DNA from: Aquificaceae bacterium
GTDB lineage: Bacteria > Aquificota > Aquificia > Aquificales > Aquificaceae
Assembly (NCBI GenBank): GCA_037924335.1
Contig: JAXSMZ010000009.1
Coordinates: forward strand, 1-46,247
DNA length: 46,247 nucleotides
Direction of reading: 5' to 3'
Position numbers and translations under genes: made by a program. The notes under the pieces were generated by a model. That model was not told the origin of the DNA. It was given only the letters and a program-made list of their open reading frames with translations, and did not search any database. Position 1 is the first letter of the stretch, and the number at the start of each line of letters is the position of its first letter. Of this stretch, positions 35,324 through 41,605 are shown piece by piece.

Positions 35324-35994
35324 ATGATGTGAAGATATTTATAGTTGAGGATGATGTAGACCTTGCCCAGGTGCTTGAGTACAACCTAAAGAAGGAAGGT
35401 TATCGGGTGCTGACCTTCCAAGGAGGAAAGTACCTTTTCAAGAAGATGGAAGAAGAGATTCCAGACCTTATAATGCTTGATATAATGCTTCCAGATTACG
35501 ACGGTTTTAGGATAGCAAACATTTTGAAATCAAAGGCTGATGTGAAAGATATTCCCATAATATTCATAACGGCTAAGGATTTAGAAGAGGATAAACTTAA
35601 AGGCTTTTCCCTCGGTGCCGATGATTACATAACAAAACCCTTCTCCATAAAAGAGCTCCTTGCAAGGGTTAAAGCCATTCTTAAAAGGGTCGGTAAGCTG
35701 GAGAAAAGGGGGATCTTCAAGCTTGGTGAACTTGAGATAGATACTCACAAGTATGAGGTAAAGAGAGGTAAAGAGAAGATAGAACTGACACCCACAGAGT
35801 TTAGAATATTCGAAACTCTTTTGGAGAACTACGGAAGACCAGTAAGCAGAGGCTATCTCATAGAGAGGATACTCCAGAAGGATATATACGATAGAACTAT
35901 AGACGTGCATGTAAAAAACATAAGGGAAAAGCTTGGAAAAGAGGGAAACGCTATAAAAACGGTCAGAGGTTTTGGCTACAAAATAGAACTATGA
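35320..35994 (+). CDS. OmpR/PhoB-family response regulator
   Basis: VEDD, LDIMLP, GADDYITKPF and winged-helix RTIDVHV...TVRGFGY. Confidence 0.92.
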   Translation: MNDVKIFIVEDDVDLAQVLEYNLKKEGYRVLTFQGGKYLFKKMEEEIPDLIMLDIMLPDYDGFRIANILKSKADVKDIPIIFITAKDLEEDKLKGFSLGADDYITKPFSIKELLARVKAILKRVGKLEKRGIFKLGELEIDTHKYEVKRGKEKIELTPTEFRIFETLLENYGRPVSRGYLIERILQKDIYDRTIDVHVKNIREKLGKEGNAIKTVRGFGYKIEL

Positions 35995-37148
35995 AATGGT
36001 TTGTGCTCATATTCTTTTTCCTATACCTCTTCATACATTCTTACACCTTTTTTAGACTGATAAGGACAAACTTCTCTTCAAGAGTGAGCTCTATACTCAT
36101 ATTCCTTTTCATCTTTATGTTACTGTCCCCTCTCTCGTGGCGGTTTTTGGATGAGAGAGCTCCTCAATCTATAACCTATTTGGTGGTACTGACGAGCCTT
36201 CTTTGGATGGGCTTTATCTTTTATACGGCTTTTTTCACGCTCAGCCTTGATGTCTACAGGAATATTGTAACAGTAAGCAAAAAGCTCTTTGGTGTTAATC
36301 CTCTTCCCATCCCTTCTCCAAGGCTTTCCTTTTACACTATCCTCTTGGCAAGCTTTTTCCTCTCAGTATACAGCTACTGGGAAACTCTCGGACTCCGTGT
36401 GATAAGGATAACGATAAAGACGGACAAGCTCCCCCCACATGTGAGAAATATTAAGATACTTCACATATCTGATGTTCACTTGGGACCCGTGATGGGTACG
36501 GATAAGGTACTACTGATAAAAAAAGTGTGGGAGAAAGAGAGGCCAGATATCATAGTCTCAACGGGTGACCTGATCGATGGCAACATGAGGAGAAAGGACG
36601 GGCTTGCAAGCATGCTAAAAAATATGCATGCACCCCTTGGTAAGTTTGCTGTTTTGGGAAATCATGAGTACTACAGAGGTGTAGAACAGGCTATAGACTT
36701 TACAAACAGAGCTGGGTTTTATCTTTTAAAGGGTGAACGGGTGGACTTAGGACCTTTAGTTATTGTCGGTGTTGATGATGATGATTGCAGATTCTTTAAT
36801 GCATGCAAAGGTACAGTTGATGAGTACCAGATTTTAAAAGACACGCCAAAGGATAAGTTTGTACTTCTCTTAAAGCACAAGCCAAGGTTAAACCCTTCCT
36901 CTGCTGGACTGTTTGACCTTATGCTGTCCGGACACACGCATGGGGGAATATACAAACCAGTTGGAGAGTTCATCATTAAAAGGATGTTTATCACAGATAG
37001 GGGCCTTGTAAGGGTCAAAGATTCTTATGTATTCGTAAGCAAAGGTGTGGGAACTGGCGGACCGCCTATGAGGCTCTTTTCTCCACCAGATGTAGCTATA
37101 GTAGAAATTTTAAATTCTGCTCAAAAATCTATCAAGCTTGTTCAATAA
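35991..37148 (+). CDS. Membrane-anchored metallophosphoesterase (YkuE/YaeI-like)
   Basis: N-terminal TM helices plus SDVH, GDLID, GNHE and SGHTHGG motifs. Confidence 0.9.
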   Translation: MKWFVLIFFFLYLFIHSYTFFRLIRTNFSSRVSSILIFLFIFMLLSPLSWRFLDERAPQSITYLVVLTSLLWMGFIFYTAFFTLSLDVYRNIVTVSKKLFGVNPLPIPSPRLSFYTILLASFFLSVYSYWETLGLRVIRITIKTDKLPPHVRNIKILHISDVHLGPVMGTDKVLLIKKVWEKERPDIIVSTGDLIDGNMRRKDGLASMLKNMHAPLGKFAVLGNHEYYRGVEQAIDFTNRAGFYLLKGERVDLGPLVIVGVDDDDCRFFNACKGTVDEYQILKDTPKDKFVLLLKHKPRLNPSSAGLFDLMLSGHTHGGIYKPVGEFIIKRMFITDRGLVRVKDSYVFVSKGVGTGGPPMRLFSPPDVAIVEILNSAQKSIKLVQ

Positions 37149-37156
37149 ATGAACAA
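37138..37156. promoter_or_regulatory. Perfect inverted repeat TTGTTCA-N5-TGAACAA, candidate upstream activator site for a sigma54 activator
   Basis: Centred about 72 bp upstream of the -12 element. TGT-N11-ACA core. Confidence 0.45.
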
Positions 37157-37205
37157 TTATACCACCTACATCTTACTTAAAAGCCTTGGCATTCTCCAAT
37201 TTTTT

Positions 37206-37221
37206 TGGCATCTTTTTTGCA
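37206..37221 (+). promoter_or_regulatory. Sigma54 (-24/-12) promoter
   Basis: TGGCATCTTTTTTGCA has GG-N10-GC with exact spacing and fits TGGCA-N6-TTGCA. It lies about 40 bp before the Rieske gene. Confidence 0.75.
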
Positions 37222-37258
37222 TATAAAAGGATGAGACTAATATAAGGAGGTGCGCGTC

Positions 37259-37729
37259 ATGGAACTGAACAGAAGAGGCTTTATTTATTTAGGTGCCTTA
37301 GGGGTTACTTCTACGGTTGCAAAGAATGCCTTTGCAATCCAGGGAAAGGAGATTAAGGTGGTAGACCTTGCCAGCATATCTCCTCTAAAGCCCATCAGCT
37401 TTAACTACCCCGATGAAAACTCTCCTACAATTCTCCTGGATATGGGTAAGCCCGTTTATATGGGCGTCGGTCCCAAAAATTCTATAGTTGCCTATTCAGC
37501 CCTATGCCAACATATGGGCTGTCCTGTCAATTTTGATAGCAAAAGTAAGCTTTTGGTATGCCCGTGCCATATAAGTATTTATGACCCTGCTCGTGGAGGT
37601 ATGTGTGTGGAGGGTCCTGCCACAAGTAGGCTTCCAAGAATACTCCTTAAGGTCAAAAGGGATGGCCTTTATGCTGTGGGTGTATCCCAGGGCATCATAT
37701 ACGGAAGAGCCAACAACATAGGGAGGTAA
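37259..37729 (+). CDS. Tat-exported Rieske [2Fe-2S] small subunit, AioB-like
   Basis: NRRGFI twin-arginine motif, AFA cleavage site, FNYPD, GVGPKNSIVAYSALCQHMGC and CPCH.S.YDP. AAGGAGGTG RBS before ATG 37259. Confidence 0.88.
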   Translation: MELNRRGFIYLGALGVTSTVAKNAFAIQGKEIKVVDLASISPLKPISFNYPDENSPTILLDMGKPVYMGVGPKNSIVAYSALCQHMGCPVNFDSKSKLLVCPCHISIYDPARGGMCVEGPATSRLPRILLKVKRDGLYAVGVSQGIIYGRANNIGR

Positions 37730-37734
37730 TAACC

Positions 37735-40014
37735 ATGGACAGAAGAGACTTTTTAAAATCATCCTTGGTAGGTGCTGGTATTTTGCCCCTTCTCACATGG
37801 GAGGAGGCAAAGGCTTTTAGCTTAGATGCAGAACTTATGCCAGAGGATATAGAATTACCACCGGAAGATGCTCAAGTCTTTAACCTTACCTGCCAGTACT
37901 GTATGGTGCAGTGCGGATACAAGGCTTATGTGTGGGAGCCAGGCAGGGGTAGAAGAATAAAAGGATCCTACACTACAGCCTTATCTGGAGAATGGATACA
38001 CCCTCACTTTATAAACAGAGTTATAAAGGATGGAAAAGAGGTTTTTGTGGCCATAGTGCCAGATAAAAATTGTGTTATAAACCAAGGAGACCATTCTGTA
38101 AGAGGTGGTGGGAACGCTACAACCCTTTACAACCCTAGGTCTCAGAAGGTGGCAGCCAAACGCCTAGCCTACCCCATGGTGCGTCTAAAAGGCAAAGATT
38201 ACCCCCTTACAAGGGTTAGCTGGGATGATGCAGCGGAGTTTATCGCAGAAAAGTTTACAAGAATAAAGCAAGAACATGGTCCAGATGCCTTGGGCATGGT
38301 CTTTGGAGACTGGCTTTGGACATTACCCACTTATGCCATTCTAAAATTCTGGTTTAAAGGCTTAGGCTCTTCCTCTTACGCGGGTAATGGTTGGTTCTTT
38401 GATGAGGAAAGCGCAGGCATTTCCTCTGCATTTGGAAGCGGTACTCGGAGCTTTACTGTTGAAGACTTTGAAATAACCAAGCTCTTGGTTACGGCTGGCA
38501 CCAATTTGCAGGCAAACGGAAGCATCTGGTGGCATAGATTTTATCTCAAAAACCTCTCCGCAGGAAAAGCAAAGCACATAGACATAGACCCACGCCGTAC
38601 TCTTCAGGCCCAGATGGCAGAGAAGCATGGTGGTCTGCACCTTCAAATAAAGCCTGGAACAGACCCAATCTTGGCTGGCGCCTTGATAAGGTTGGTTTTA
38701 GAGAAGGATGCCTACGATAAAGACTTCGTCCGTAAGTATGTGGTGGGCTTTGAAAAGGTAGTAGAAACCGTTAAAGATCCCAGGTTTTCCCTGGACAATG
38801 CGTCAAAAGCTACAGGTATACCAAAGAGGAAGATACTTAAGGCTGTGGAGCTTATGATAGATAACAAAGGTCAATCTATGTTCCTACATGAGAAGGGCTT
38901 AATACATCAGATGGCTGCCTTTGAGGCACAGCATGCCTACGCTGTGCTCGGAATAATACTGGGTAATGTGGGTAAGCCAGGCGCCTGTGTTTCCAGGTCT
39001 GGTGGGCATCCTAAGGGTACCTTTGCCTGGCCAGAGGAGCCACCTTCAAGGAAACAAAACCTTAACATCTATGAGGGACTAGAGAAGGGTAAAGTCAAAG
39101 CCCTTTGGGCTTATGGCTGCAGTATTTTCAAGCAACTTCCATCTTTAACAAAGTATAGACCCTTAATGGAAAAAACCTTCCTTGTTGTTTCCGACAGGAT
39201 TCATACAGAAATGGATTCCGCAGCGGACGTTCTTTTACCAGCAGCCACATGGGGTGAAACGGACTTAATATTGGCAAGTGAGGATCGCCGGGTTCGGATT
39301 CTCCAAAAGTTCATGGACCCTCCTGGCGAAGCACTACCCGACTGGAAACATGTGGTCTTGGTTGCAAAGAAGATGGGCATTGAAGGCTTTGATTGGGAAA
39401 GCCCAAGGGATGTTTGGGATGAGATACGCACGCAAAACGACTGGGTAAAAGAGATGGATTGGGATAGCCTTCTCAAGGCTGGCACAAACGGACTGAGATA
39501 CCCTATGGTAAATGGTAAATCACCCGATAGGCTTTATTCTGATGAGATGGAAAGGCTAATGGGTAAAAGGTTCTTCACAAAGGATAACAAGATACACGTG
39601 GAAAAGATAACGGTACTTAAGGATTTTGACCTTAAAAAGTACGAATGGGGTGAAGTAAACTCCCGCTATCCCCTTATGGCAATAGATTTTAGACTAAACG
39701 AACTTTGGAATACAGGATACACTTATTGGGACACACCCGGCGTATACGAAAGAACTCCTGACGCCTATTTACTGATAAATCCTGTGGATGCCAAAGCTCG
39801 TGGCATAAGTACAGGTCAATGGGTTGTATTGGAATCACCCTACGGTAAGTGCAAGGCTGTGGCAAGGGTAAGCGATGAGGTACCACCTGGTGTGGTTGGC
39901 ATGCCCGCCCTTTTCCCAAAACCGGAACAAGAGTTTAACTATGCCACAAGGCCTACCCCAACCACTGATGGTAGCGTTGATACTATGGTTGCCTGTGAAG
40001 TTTATCCTGTTTGA
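37735..40014 (+). CDS. Molybdopterin (DMSO reductase family) oxidoreductase large subunit, divergent AioA-like, substrate unknown
   Basis: LPP.DA...TCQYCMVQCGY ([3Fe-4S]-type CX2CX3C-X60-S-VRGG), RLAYPMVR, IDPRRT, ADVLLPAATWGE, SEDRRVR and C-terminal INPVDA domain. Carries its own Tat signal MDRRDFLK. Confidence 0.88.
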   Translation: MDRRDFLKSSLVGAGILPLLTWEEAKAFSLDAELMPEDIELPPEDAQVFNLTCQYCMVQCGYKAYVWEPGRGRRIKGSYTTALSGEWIHPHFINRVIKDGKEVFVAIVPDKNCVINQGDHSVRGGGNATTLYNPRSQKVAAKRLAYPMVRLKGKDYPLTRVSWDDAAEFIAEKFTRIKQEHGPDALGMVFGDWLWTLPTYAILKFWFKGLGSSSYAGNGWFFDEESAGISSAFGSGTRSFTVEDFEITKLLVTAGTNLQANGSIWWHRFYLKNLSAGKAKHIDIDPRRTLQAQMAEKHGGLHLQIKPGTDPILAGALIRLVLEKDAYDKDFVRKYVVGFEKVVETVKDPRFSLDNASKATGIPKRKILKAVELMIDNKGQSMFLHEKGLIHQMAAFEAQHAYAVLGIILGNVGKPGACVSRSGGHPKGTFAWPEEPPSRKQNLNIYEGLEKGKVKALWAYGCSIFKQLPSLTKYRPLMEKTFLVVSDRIHTEMDSAADVLLPAATWGETDLILASEDRRVRILQKFMDPPGEALPDWKHVVLVAKKMGIEGFDWESPRDVWDEIRTQNDWVKEMDWDSLLKAGTNGLRYPMVNGKSPDRLYSDEMERLMGKRFFTKDNKIHVEKITVLKDFDLKKYEWGEVNSRYPLMAIDFRLNELWNTGYTYWDTPGVYERTPDAYLLINPVDAKARGISTGQWVVLESPYGKCKAVARVSDEVPPGVVGMPALFPKPEQEFNYATRPTPTTDGSVDTMVACEVYPV

Positions 40015-41605
40015 TTACCGGGCTTTGCCCGGTTTTTTGCAAACAGGCGTATACAAAAGACACAAAGAGTGGATGTGGTCTGTGTGGTTTGCTTTTAAAC
40101 TCTGGATGGAACTGACAGCCTATGTACCAAGGGTGGTCTTTTAATTCTATGACCTCCACAAGCCTACCGTCTGGTGAAAGCCCAGAAAAGACTATACCAT
40201 GCCTTTCAAAAGCTTCTCTGTATTGGTTGTTAAACTCATACCTATGTCTATGCCTTTCGTATATTAGATCTTTTCCGTATATTTCCCTTGCCTTTGAACC
40301 CTCCATCAGTTTACAAGGATAAGAACCAAGCCTCATGGTACCGCCCAGCTCTTTTATGTTTTTCTGCTCTTCCATTATGTCTATAATAGGGTGGGGTGTT
40401 AAGGGGTTAAACTCTGTAGAGTTGGCGTCTTTTAGATCAAGCACATTCCTTGCAAACTCCACACACATAAGTTGCATACCAAGGCATATACCAAAGGTTG
40501 GTTTTTTCTTCTCCCTTCCGTACTTTAAAGCCATTATCTTTCCCTGCGTTCCCCTCTCCCCAAAACCACCAGGAACCAGTATTCCGTCAAGCTTATCCAA
40601 CGTATCCTCATCAACCTCTTCAGAGTTTATCCAGTGAATGTTAAGCTCTACACCGTTGGCAATACCGCCATGAATAAGGGCTTCCTGCACGCTTTTATAA
40701 GAGTCTTTCAATGACATGTACTTTCCCACAACTCCTATATTTACCTTTTCTTTTGAACTCTTGATTATGTTTATAATGTTCTCCCACTTTGTGGGAACAT
40801 CCCTATACTCGAGCTTCAGTTTCTGTGCTATAAGCTTATCAACACCCTGTTTTTTTAAGATTATGGGTACTTCGTACACATAATCCACATCCTGTGCAGA
40901 TATGACAGCTTCTTTGTTCACGTTTGTAAAGAGGGCTATTTTTTCTTTTATACTTGGTGGCAGCTCAAACTCGGACCTGCAGACTATTATGTCTGGCTGT
41001 ATTCCTATGGCTCTTAGCTCCTTCACAGAATGTTGGGTTGGTTTTGTCTTTAGTTCACCCGCGCTTTTTATGTAAGGTACATATGTGACATGTATGAAGA
41101 GCATATCCTCTCCGTTTGATTGAGTGTACATCTGCCTTATAGCTTCCAAAAAGGGTAAGCTTTCCATGTCCCCAACGGTACCACCTACCTCAACAAAAGC
41201 TATACAGTTATCCTTCTGAACCGCCCTTATGAGCCTTTTTATCTCATCGGTTATGTGAGGTATAACCTGTACAGTTGCACCAAGATAACCACCCTTCCTC
41301 TCCCTCTCTATCACATTAAAGTAGACTTTACCAGCCGTTACGTTGTTTATTTTCCCCATGCTGGCATTTGTGAATCTTTCATAATGTCCAAGGTCCAAGT
41401 CAGTTTCAGCTCCATCCTCTGTAACATAGACTTCCCCATGTTGGTATGGGCTCATGGTACCCGGGTCCACGTTCAGGTAAGGGTCCAGCTTTTGAAAAGT
41501 TACTTCGTATCCCATCTCCTCCATAAGGGAAGCTATGGATGCTGCAGTTATACCCTTTCCAAGGGCTGAAAGAACACCCCCAGTTATAAAAATAAACTTC
41601 GCCAT
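39983..41605 (-). CDS. pyrG: CTP synthase
   Basis: KFIFITGGVLSALGKG, DPGTMSP, GICLGMQ, ERHRHRYE and QFHPEF motifs. Confidence 0.97.
   Translation of the reverse strand: MAKFIFITGGVLSALGKGITAASIASLMEEMGYEVTFQKLDPYLNVDPGTMSPYQHGEVYVTEDGAETDLDLGHYERFTNASMGKINNVTAGKVYFNVIERERKGGYLGATVQVIPHITDEIKRLIRAVQKDNCIAFVEVGGTVGDMESLPFLEAIRQMYTQSNGEDMLFIHVTYVPYIKSAGELKTKPTQHSVKELRAIGIQPDIIVCRSEFELPPSIKEKIALFTNVNKEAVISAQDVDYVYEVPIILKKQGVDKLIAQKLKLEYRDVPTKWENIINIIKSSKEKVNIGVVGKYMSLKDSYKSVQEALIHGGIANGVELNIHWINSEEVDEDTLDKLDGILVPGGFGERGTQGKIMALKYGREKKKPTFGICLGMQLMCVEFARNVLDLKDANSTEFNPLTPHPIIDIMEEQKNIKELGGTMRLGSYPCKLMEGSKAREIYGKDLIYERHRHRYEFNNQYREAFERHGIVFSGLSPDGRLVEVIELKDHPWYIGCQFHPEFKSKPHRPHPLFVSFVYACLQKTGQSPVIKQDKLHRQP
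40018..40038 (+). terminator. Rho-independent terminator of the aioBA-like operon
   Basis: CCGGGC-TTT-GCCCGG followed by TTTTTT, starting 3 nt after the stop codon. Confidence 0.75.

Follow-up and report, generated by a model that had tools for sequence, protein, structure and literature searches.

An apparently undescribed family of arsenite oxidase-related molybdenum enzymes with an altered substrate funnel in Aquificaceae and other bacteria

Two enzymes, Aio and Arx, are credited with arsenite oxidation, and surveys use their genes, aioA and arxA, as its markers. The closest described system for the locus presented here is AioBA, known from Pseudorhizobium banfieldiae NT-26 and Alcaligenes faecalis (4AAY and 1G8K). 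With AioBA, a gene pair from an Aquificaceae bacterium (assembly GCA_037924335.1) shares the fold, a [3Fe-4S] motif with serine, a Rieske partner and the small-then-large gene order. The pair lies on contig JAXSMZ010000009.1, whose 46,247 nucleotides are the window of this analysis. Judged from sequence, it represents an arsenite oxidase-related family, apparently not yet described, within a known superfamily, and on balance we lean towards regarding it as an arsenic-induced periplasmic oxidase of As(III) species. Gene order and the size of the large subunit (Table 1) are as given in the original prediction, an earlier reading of the window by itself. The window genome is labelled G000; C2, C4, C8 and C26 are contigs of G000, and L-, P- and G-numbers denote the loci, proteins and genomes compared. 

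In its AlphaFold model (predicted local distance difference test score, pLDDT, 89.2), the large subunit has the AioA fold. Aio structures fill the top 11 Foldseek rows, with template modelling (TM) scores of 0.80 to 0.83 to Aio, and the model superposes on Aio with a Z score of 41.5 (next family, 38.1) and a root mean square deviation of 2.4 Å over 703 residues, at about 24 to 28% identity by structure alignment. Family models give a similar picture: the AioA model TIGR02693 is the best family match of the large subunit at 291.7 bits, below its cut-off of 359.05, and the small subunit scores 136.9 bits against the AioB model TIGR02694, above the cut-off of 95.65. Two domains of the dimethyl sulfoxide reductase superfamily, PF00384 (122.3 bits) and PF01568 (68.4 bits), exceed their Pfam cut-offs, as does the [3Fe-4S] domain PF18465, whose CX2CX3C...S motif stands in place of a [4Fe-4S] motif. 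Scores for nitrate reductase and formate dehydrogenase families fall far below cut-off; those enzymes carry a four-cysteine [4Fe-4S] cluster and a Cys or Sec ligand to molybdenum (Mo), whereas the query has Ser and Phe in the respective columns.

Among the best 120 homologues listed, 82 are 43 to 94% identical to the large subunit and the remainder at most 32%, and a profile search of 1.84 billion representatives returned two proteins at 1290 and 1180 bits, with the next at 506. The clade of about 80 proteins is monophyletic at 100/100 in a careful 38-row tree, a subset of a 78-row tree, which was rooted on Fdh/Nas and in which peroxidase-flanked loci stand in for characterised IdrA. It branches outside AioA, Idr-type and Bacillus-type proteins together (support 100/99), and its grouping with AioA was rejected by the approximately unbiased (AU) test (p=4.5e-5, LG+G4); one unplaced protein, P0156, branches deeper than the clade. 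The original prediction had proposed an uncharacterised Aio-like clade and had called for such a phylogeny, and the tree and the TIGR02693 score bear the proposal out; the large subunit nests with neither AioA nor IdrA-type sequences. Carriers among the matches listed include records from Aquificaceae, Pseudomonadota, Acidobacteriota and Nitrospirota as well as Bosea sp. AS-1, and a Rieske gene adjoins the large-subunit gene in clade loci with room for one. Judged by E-value, no additional low-scoring match of clade type came from a sample of 401 genomes of the class to which G181 belongs.

Other Aio-like pairs outside the canonical clade have been noted. The Bacillus-type pair of a Cytobacillus firmus plasmid (L145) likewise has a short spacing (X61) and an arsenic/phosphate island around it, but it keeps the HNRP motif and GGHQE, and the window clade branches outside it. 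This basal pair (L145:11377-14409; 809 amino acids, in a pst/ars island) forms a clade with P0085 and P0152-P0154; B. oryziterrae has been named as carrying the most basal AioA (PMC7331816). The "unknown clade" of Halorubrum and Dehalococcoidia (PMC8692401) is also an Aio-like pair outside the canonical clade, and our tree knowingly includes no Halorubrum sequence. The available parts of PMC8692401, PMC10100899, PMC7331816, PMC11696919, PMC11804256 and PMC3758308 name only AioA, IdrA, this "unknown clade" and the Bacillus basal branch. Full-text literature searches turned up no account of the clade, its PAS-LuxR regulator (see below) or the Bosea locus tags; supplements and most subscription journals lay outside that coverage, so published trees could hold members unnamed.

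The active site also sets the clade apart from AioA. Residues were counted in an alignment of 74 members, comprising the query and 73 of the 82 homologues; the set omits P0025, in which a deletion spans the YAGNGW segment, and eight proteins that are partial or truncated. Eight pocket residues of NT-26 AioA served as the reference, namely, Asp169, His199, Arg201, Glu207, Lys413, Arg447, His451 and Glu453 (PMC10448176), and their mapping comes from alignments, not from side chains of the model. Five are kept: Asp169 (D192 in the query), Lys413 (K387), Arg447 (R421) and His451 (H425) in 74/74 members each, and Glu207 (E225) in 71/74, with Gln in the other three. His199, Arg201 and Glu453 are absent from all 74 members, and no member has Glu in the Glu453 column; the register at His199 shifts by one residue between aligners (phmmer aligns Gly and MAFFT aligns Asn), with His and Arg lost in both. 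The clade has invariants of its own in W193 (at the position of AioA His170; 74/74), H391, Q392 and P426, and its Gly-rich loop is shortened. As these changes are common to 74 aligned homologues at 43 to 94% identity, they are not due to chance or error.

Several readings of the original prediction were confirmed here: the segment YAGNGWFFDEESAG stands where AioA has its HNRPAYNSE segment, SRSGGHPKG is present, the large subunit carries a twin-arginine-like leader, and the spacing is CX2CX3C-X60-S-VRGG (X55-63 in the clade, X70-71 in 11/11 AioA and 8/8 Idr-type proteins). Its statement that the substrate His and Glu are replaced held for the histidine (His199, together with Arg201) but not for the glutamate, which is retained as E225. 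The serine column of the [3Fe-4S] motif holds Cys in all eight Fdh/Nas outgroup proteins. At the Mo-ligand column, where the register differs by one between aligners, Phe is found in 52/74 members (F221 in the query) and Cys in 4/74, against Ala in 11/11 AioA and Cys in 8/8 outgroup proteins; the query has no Cys, Ser or Asp there and may, like AioA, lack a protein ligand to Mo. P0047, P0051 and P0053 have Cys where Nap and Fdh have their Mo ligand, a change that could give back such a ligand. Clade large subunits are 60 to 85 residues shorter than AioA and bear a second twin-arginine translocation (Tat)-like leader, matched by regular expression in 71/74 members and in none of 11 AioA or eight Idr-type proteins; the small subunit has one in 36/40 members by the same method. 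A Rieske Ser/Tyr pair considered as a mark of high potential was rejected, being variable in the clade, and F128Y was without effect in NT-26 (PMC3758308).

The loss of His199, Arg201 and Glu453 and the gain of Trp and Phe predict a less polar funnel, which may shift substrate preference or rate. That the large subunit is nevertheless an ordinary, merely divergent AioA is scarcely credible. Aio is its best match by sequence and by fold, and homologues are annotated in some sources as "arsenite oxidase large subunit," yet the branch outside AioA and IdrA, the AU result, the score below the TIGR02693 cut-off and the three pocket residues lost throughout the clade refute that reading as to descent, leaving it only in the sense that the enzyme would work like Aio, the reading preferred here.

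The same evidence bears on iodate reductase (IdrABP1P2, from Pseudomonas sp. SCT and Denitromonas sp. IR-12), here compared through the peroxidase-flanked loci. Idr shares with the pair its cofactor set, Lys413, Arg447, His451 and, as it turns out, the gene order: the original prediction had taken the order to be reversed, but the Rieske gene precedes the large-subunit gene in 10/10 Idr-type loci inspected, after peroxidase-like genes. Because all 10 run peroxidases, Rieske, large subunit, gene order cannot separate the pair from Idr. The conclusion that the pair is not an iodate reductase stands on other grounds, namely, the tree, the motifs and the peroxidase genes, none of which adjoins the window pair, as the prediction had stated. 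Idr-type proteins keep four of the eight AioA pocket residues; they retain His199 (8/8, as in 11/11 AioA) and have GGHQRG, have lost Asp169 and Glu207, and form a separate branch. IdrA is described as having no signal peptide (PMC8692401).

A second body of evidence concerns regulation. The predicted promoter upstream of the small-subunit gene (Table 1) is the only exact match to the sigma-54 -24/-12 motif in the window; because matches with one mismatch are barely above chance (6 against 3.1 expected), its weight comes from position and conservation. The motif precedes 15/17 canonical Aquificaceae aioB genes and NT-26 aioB, against a genome background of 0.0035 per 380 bp. A matrix trained only on the 15 canonical Aquificaceae aioB upstream regions found two tandem sites, 88 and 67 nucleotides before the promoter, and several canonical regions have them at 90 and 69. 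The pair of sites scored 26.3 (random mean, -2.7; standard deviation, 5.3), a score to be read with the fact that the seed pattern of the motif was picked after the window sequence had been seen; 1/1500 random windows reached 26.3, with exactly the same score, so this was probably the cassette site itself. The genome has 28 sigma-54-like sites, of which the cassette site and a divergent pair on C26 alone scored above 12. The upstream sites of the related loci L007 and L008 score lower, at 18.6. A GTTC-N7-GAAC look-alike of the NT-26-type activator site in the window was dropped, as 0/15 canonical Aquificaceae regions have it, and a sigma-70 promoter search of the coding strand found none. Read from sequence, the predicted regulation, shared with canonical Aquificaceae aioBA, is the main new evidence on this family.

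In AioXSR and ArxXSR, a periplasmic sensor (X), a kinase and a sigma-54 activator act together, and in the published record aioXSR ranges over Alpha- and Betaproteobacteria (PMC5908839). G000 carries such an X-S-R trio, on C8 and thus on another contig than the pair; the motif upstream of the pair is unlike that of NT-26. AioX-type sensors of Aquificaceae are not mentioned in the literature consulted. The X protein (C8:3569-4405) keeps all seven AioX pocket residues listed in PMC5908839 (Y88, C106, Y131, S161, S163, H192 and D210), as do 26/26 aligned rows (25 distinct), whether the trio lies beside the pair or in trans. It also has the longer hydrophobic loop (V56 and F57 read as I/V) described for AioX and ArxX and missing in ArrX. 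Of the ions tried on AioX and ArxX, arsenite was bound, whereas nine others, antimonite, tetrathionate and thiosulfate among them, were not, and ArrX binds arsenate (PMC5908839). X proteins occur in 22/90 Aquificaceae genomes, 17 of which belong to the 19 that carry an Aio-type gene, and in eight genomes the X gene lies within 5 kb of canonical aioA; we give no p-value for this co-occurrence because kin are not independent. Four of the five X-bearing genomes without an Aio-type gene have a Ttr-like enzyme. In the distant members L115 and L142, the trio lies directly upstream of the pair, with a sigma-54 motif, so part of the clade shares with AioBA a sigma-54 promoter under X-S-R control. From the co-occurrence and the shared motif we infer that the X protein may act in trans as the arsenite sensor that activates the cassette promoter. 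A further Mo enzyme near L142, considered as Arx, had no Protein Data Bank match at 1e-10 and was left unnamed.

The divergent sites on C26 precede a Ttr-like three-gene operon (C26:16164-21578, minus strand; loci L005 and L212; 1149-residue large subunit) and a porin-like gene (21875 onward, plus strand), both with sigma-54 sites and the same tandem motif. Ttr-like genes occur in 12/90 Aquificaceae genomes, nine of them with an AioX-type sensor, often within 10 kb; the enzyme may reduce arsenate or thioarsenate and be induced by arsenic. At the start of C8, the X-S-R trio (C8:12-4405; locus L187) has as its neighbor the C-terminal part of a porin-like gene, and an N-terminal part of such a gene closes C26; the two contigs may adjoin, although no overlap of their ends was found.

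Gene neighborhoods of clade members elsewhere bring in two further readings. A Nitrospirota-rich subclade (43 to 46% identity) has a cytochrome c gene upstream in 12 loci; downstream lie genes for Rieske, cytochrome b and multiheme cytochrome c proteins, each in 9 to 14 loci. Such flanks would suit an enzyme that, like IdrAB, is a reductase and whose quinol electrons reach As(V) species or another high-potential oxyanion via a Rieske/cytochrome b complex and cytochrome c, and the co-regulated Ttr-like operon fits as well, as the Ttr lineage includes arsenate and selenate reductases (PMC7331816). We nevertheless regard this direction as quite unlikely. The multiheme genes belong to the cytochrome b/c complex and are not idr peroxidases, Idr-type motifs are absent, and the same electron wiring can drain an oxidase; moreover, the window subclade lacks the Rieske/cytochrome b complex, the Bosea copy has an aio-type tail, and the hydrophobic loop of the X protein is of the AioX/ArxX type rather than the ArrX type. 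Within the Nitrospirota-rich subclade (L012-L018 and related metagenome loci), ArsS radical S-adenosylmethionine genes lie upstream in six loci; the pair stands twice in tandem in L017, and extra copies occur in two genomes.

The second reading starts from a regulator. A PAS-LuxR gene adjoins the pair in 16 clade loci, with C50, C66 and C67 invariant in 13/13 aligned sequences, and was seen in no non-clade locus compared. It occurs in 1/72,556 plasmids, that of Bosea (L143:29768-30715); it was not found in the window genome, nor in 178 genomes of the phylum except for one helix-turn-helix-only match. Its model has a pLDDT of 85.4, and Atlas and fold searches gave generic PAS/LuxR matches only. 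Three-cysteine sites bind As(III) and Sb(III), as in ArsR and ArsD, and by analogy this regulator, a candidate metalloid sensor to whose type no match was found, probably senses a trivalent metalloid in the lineages that carry it.

Bosea sp. AS-1 is the only cultured strain in which a member was found, on a conjugative plasmid (59% identity). The gene order there, small subunit, large subunit, cytochrome c and moeA, is that of NT-26 aio and is followed by an ArsK-like major facilitator superfamily gene, arsC and acr3. The strain is an antimony-mine isolate that oxidises As(III) and Sb(III) and is described as lacking anoA (PMC8453088). It has been listed with aioXSR-aioAB (PMC12263811); these genes were not seen beside the plasmid pair, which would then be a second enzyme beside the listed aioAB. 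A dedicated antimonite oxidase, with an opened, more aromatic pocket suited to the larger Sb(OH)3 and a three-cysteine regulator sensing Sb(III), would fit this strain, in keeping with the binding of Sb(III) as well as As(III) by three-cysteine sites. Aio oxidises Sb(III) about 6500 times more slowly than As(III) (PMC10448176). This reading is unlikely in our judgment: AioX-family sensors bound no antimonite, yet three separate lineages have the X-S-R/sigma-54 architecture, and AS-1 is a single strain and, as evidence, an anecdote. It is a part of a wider view, one that we hold as a tentative possibility, that the clade is a dedicated respiratory oxidase of a trivalent metalloid poorly handled by Aio (antimonite, methylarsenite or thioarsenite), that it has a three-cysteine PAS-LuxR sensor to itself, and that it is the deepest branch with a Rieske partner of the Aio/Idr lineage in our sampling.

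Of the 25 clade loci flanked by 5 kb or more, 12 had arsenic markers, compared with 0/13 Idr-type, 0/9 other Aio-like and 3/27 Fdh/Nas loci. The contrast is overstated because the seeds were drawn mostly from clade loci and several of the loci nearly duplicate each other; canonical aio loci lay outside the test. Neighbors above cut-off were Acr3 (L011, L123), ArsM (L011), ArsS (L014) and an arsenosugar glycosyltransferase (L016), and those below it were ArsK and, in L010 and L115, Acr3-like genes. The 13 well-flanked loci without an arsenic marker, the much less polar funnel, and the Ttr-like operons that share the regulator motif in G000 and adjoin the pair in L112 would fit a non-metalloid substrate (a sulfur oxyanion, phosphite or a neutral organic sulfur or phosphorus compound), with the arsenic context incidental. 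We consider this very improbable, as both regulator types linked to the clade look like trivalent-metalloid sensors, no sulfur or phosphite genes recur among clade neighbors, and Cys106-type sensors bound no tetrathionate, thiosulfate, sulfate or phosphonate (PMC5908839). A sulfur oxyanion in particular has little support.

Besides the seeding of the neighbor test, several points count against an arsenic-induced As(III) oxidase. The cofactor set of IdrAB, which is the same, can run as a reductase. The strict sigma-54 motif precedes only 4/40 clade pairs and none of the 16 PAS-LuxR loci; ArrX has the same seven pocket residues as AioX, so the sensor here might read arsenate or thio species; and because the same upstream motif precedes the Ttr-like operon, the regulon would be wider than As(III) oxidation. 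The three cysteines of the PAS-LuxR regulator could bind a metal or sense redox. Two genomes, G065 and G069, hold the clade pair together with canonical aioBA (the G065 copy being frameshifted), and this co-presence suggests a separate job for the pair. Finally, turnover of plain arsenite may be poor, because the otherwise invariant His199 is lost and E453A lowered activity in NT-26 by 65% (PMC10448176).

On the reading that we prefer, oxidation of As(III) species, arsenite itself is the single most likely substrate because regulation and neighborhood point to arsenic, a possible assignment that we make with reserve; a methylated or thiolated As(III) species is the less likely alternative within this reading. 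The proteins would form a periplasmic heterodimer exported by the Tat pathway, as the leaders suggest. By analogy with Aio chemistry, the substrate would attack the Mo(VI) oxo group, oxygen would be transferred to it, and two electrons would pass from Mo through the [3Fe-4S] and Rieske clusters to a c-type cytochrome and the respiratory chain. The AioX-type periplasmic sensor encoded on C8, its kinase and the sigma-54 activator would work through the -24/-12 promoter and the tandem upstream sites of the cassette, and the pair would take the place of aioBA in G000; in other lineages, the three-cysteine PAS-LuxR protein would sense the trivalent metalloid in place of the AioX-type sensor.

Surveys would overlook or misname a family whose scores stay below the AioA cut-off. 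A preference for Sb(III), or for As(III) in organic or thiolated form, would show which enzymes carry out those oxidations, and an antimonite-type activity, if true, would supply a candidate for Sb(III) oxidation explained by neither AioA nor AnoA. Its position outside AioA and IdrA also bears on the ancestral activity of the lineage. The proposal is testable now, as the cultured Bosea sp. AS-1 carries the pair on its plasmid and Aio has already been expressed in Escherichia coli.

The pair lies in an inserted cassette (Table 1). The flanking phosphoesterase gene is present in 5/6 same-genus genomes, none of which has the cassette at that place, and pyrG directly follows it in all five; contigs of related organisms jump from 37090/37093 to 40037. 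Four sequencing runs gave 1 and 2 raw reads and a few short contig pieces for the region, which speak neither for nor against expression. No Aio-type gene was found in the six same-genus genomes. In L007 and L008 the Aquificaceae copies are likewise found at the 3' end of pyrG, and because their large subunit is 92% identical to that of the window whereas pyrG is only 74 to 75% identical, the comparison points to horizontal movement of the cassette, with a recent transfer between Aquificaceae genera. Cotransfer of pyrG was rejected on these values, pyrG being 75 to 79% identical to the same-genus copies. Aio-type genes occur in 19/90 Aquificaceae genomes: 18 have canonical genes, G065 and G069 among them also carry the clade, and the window genome carries the clade only. 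The original prediction had suggested looking for a separate canonical aioBA, and no canonical aioA was found in the window genome (99.9% complete) or in 10/12 other carrier genomes. In L107/L108 and L008, the large subunit is frameshifted near residues 66 to 98 and the genome also has canonical aioBA, which may reflect decay or assembly error.

Table 1. Features of the cassette and its flanks in the window (positions from the first nucleotide of the window)
Feature	Position	Strand	Basis or remark
Inserted cassette, about 2.9 kb	37094..40036	+	Between metallophosphoesterase gene and pyrG; ends approximate
Upstream activator-type site 1, imperfect TGNTCA-N5-TGANCA palindrome	37118..37134	+	13.8 bits; 88 nucleotides before -24 box; predicted function
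Upstream activator-type site 2, palindrome	37139..37155	+	12.5 bits; 67 nucleotides before -24 box; predicted function
Sigma-54 (-24/-12) promoter match	37206..37221	+	53 nucleotides before start codon
Shine-Dalgarno-like site of small subunit	37244..37250	+	Before start codon
Small subunit, AioB-like Rieske [2Fe-2S], 156 amino acids, twin-arginine-like leader	37259..37729	+	TIGR02694, PF00355
Large subunit, 759 amino acids, [3Fe-4S] and Mo-bis(pyranopterin guanine dinucleotide) (Mo-bisPGD), own twin-arginine-like leader	37735..40014	+	PF18465, PF00384, PF01568
[3Fe-4S] motif C53, C56, C60, S121 of large subunit	37891..38097	+	Invariant in 74/74
Rewritten funnel segments D192-W193 and A216-E225	38308..38409	+	Alignment to AioA Asp169-His170 and His199-Glu207
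E386-K387 to H391-Q392; R421-x-GG-H425-P426-K427	38890..39015	+	Alignment of 74 clade members
Terminator-like hairpin with T run, 3' of large subunit	40017..40033	+	Such sites in region: 4, against 4.1 by chance
Metallophosphoesterase, left flank, outside the system	35991..37148	+	PF00149
pyrG (CTP synthase), right flank	39983..41605	-	Named by inspection; tail runs into cassette end

The hairpin behind the large subunit is read as a terminator from its position alone, because the hairpin count in the region equals chance. Elsewhere the window genome has arsC, ArsE-like, ArsP-like (in two reading frames) and arsR-arsB genes (C2:109988-111601 and C4:36040-37631). The pyrG product at the cassette end has 540 residues, and most of its relatives align to about residue 524.

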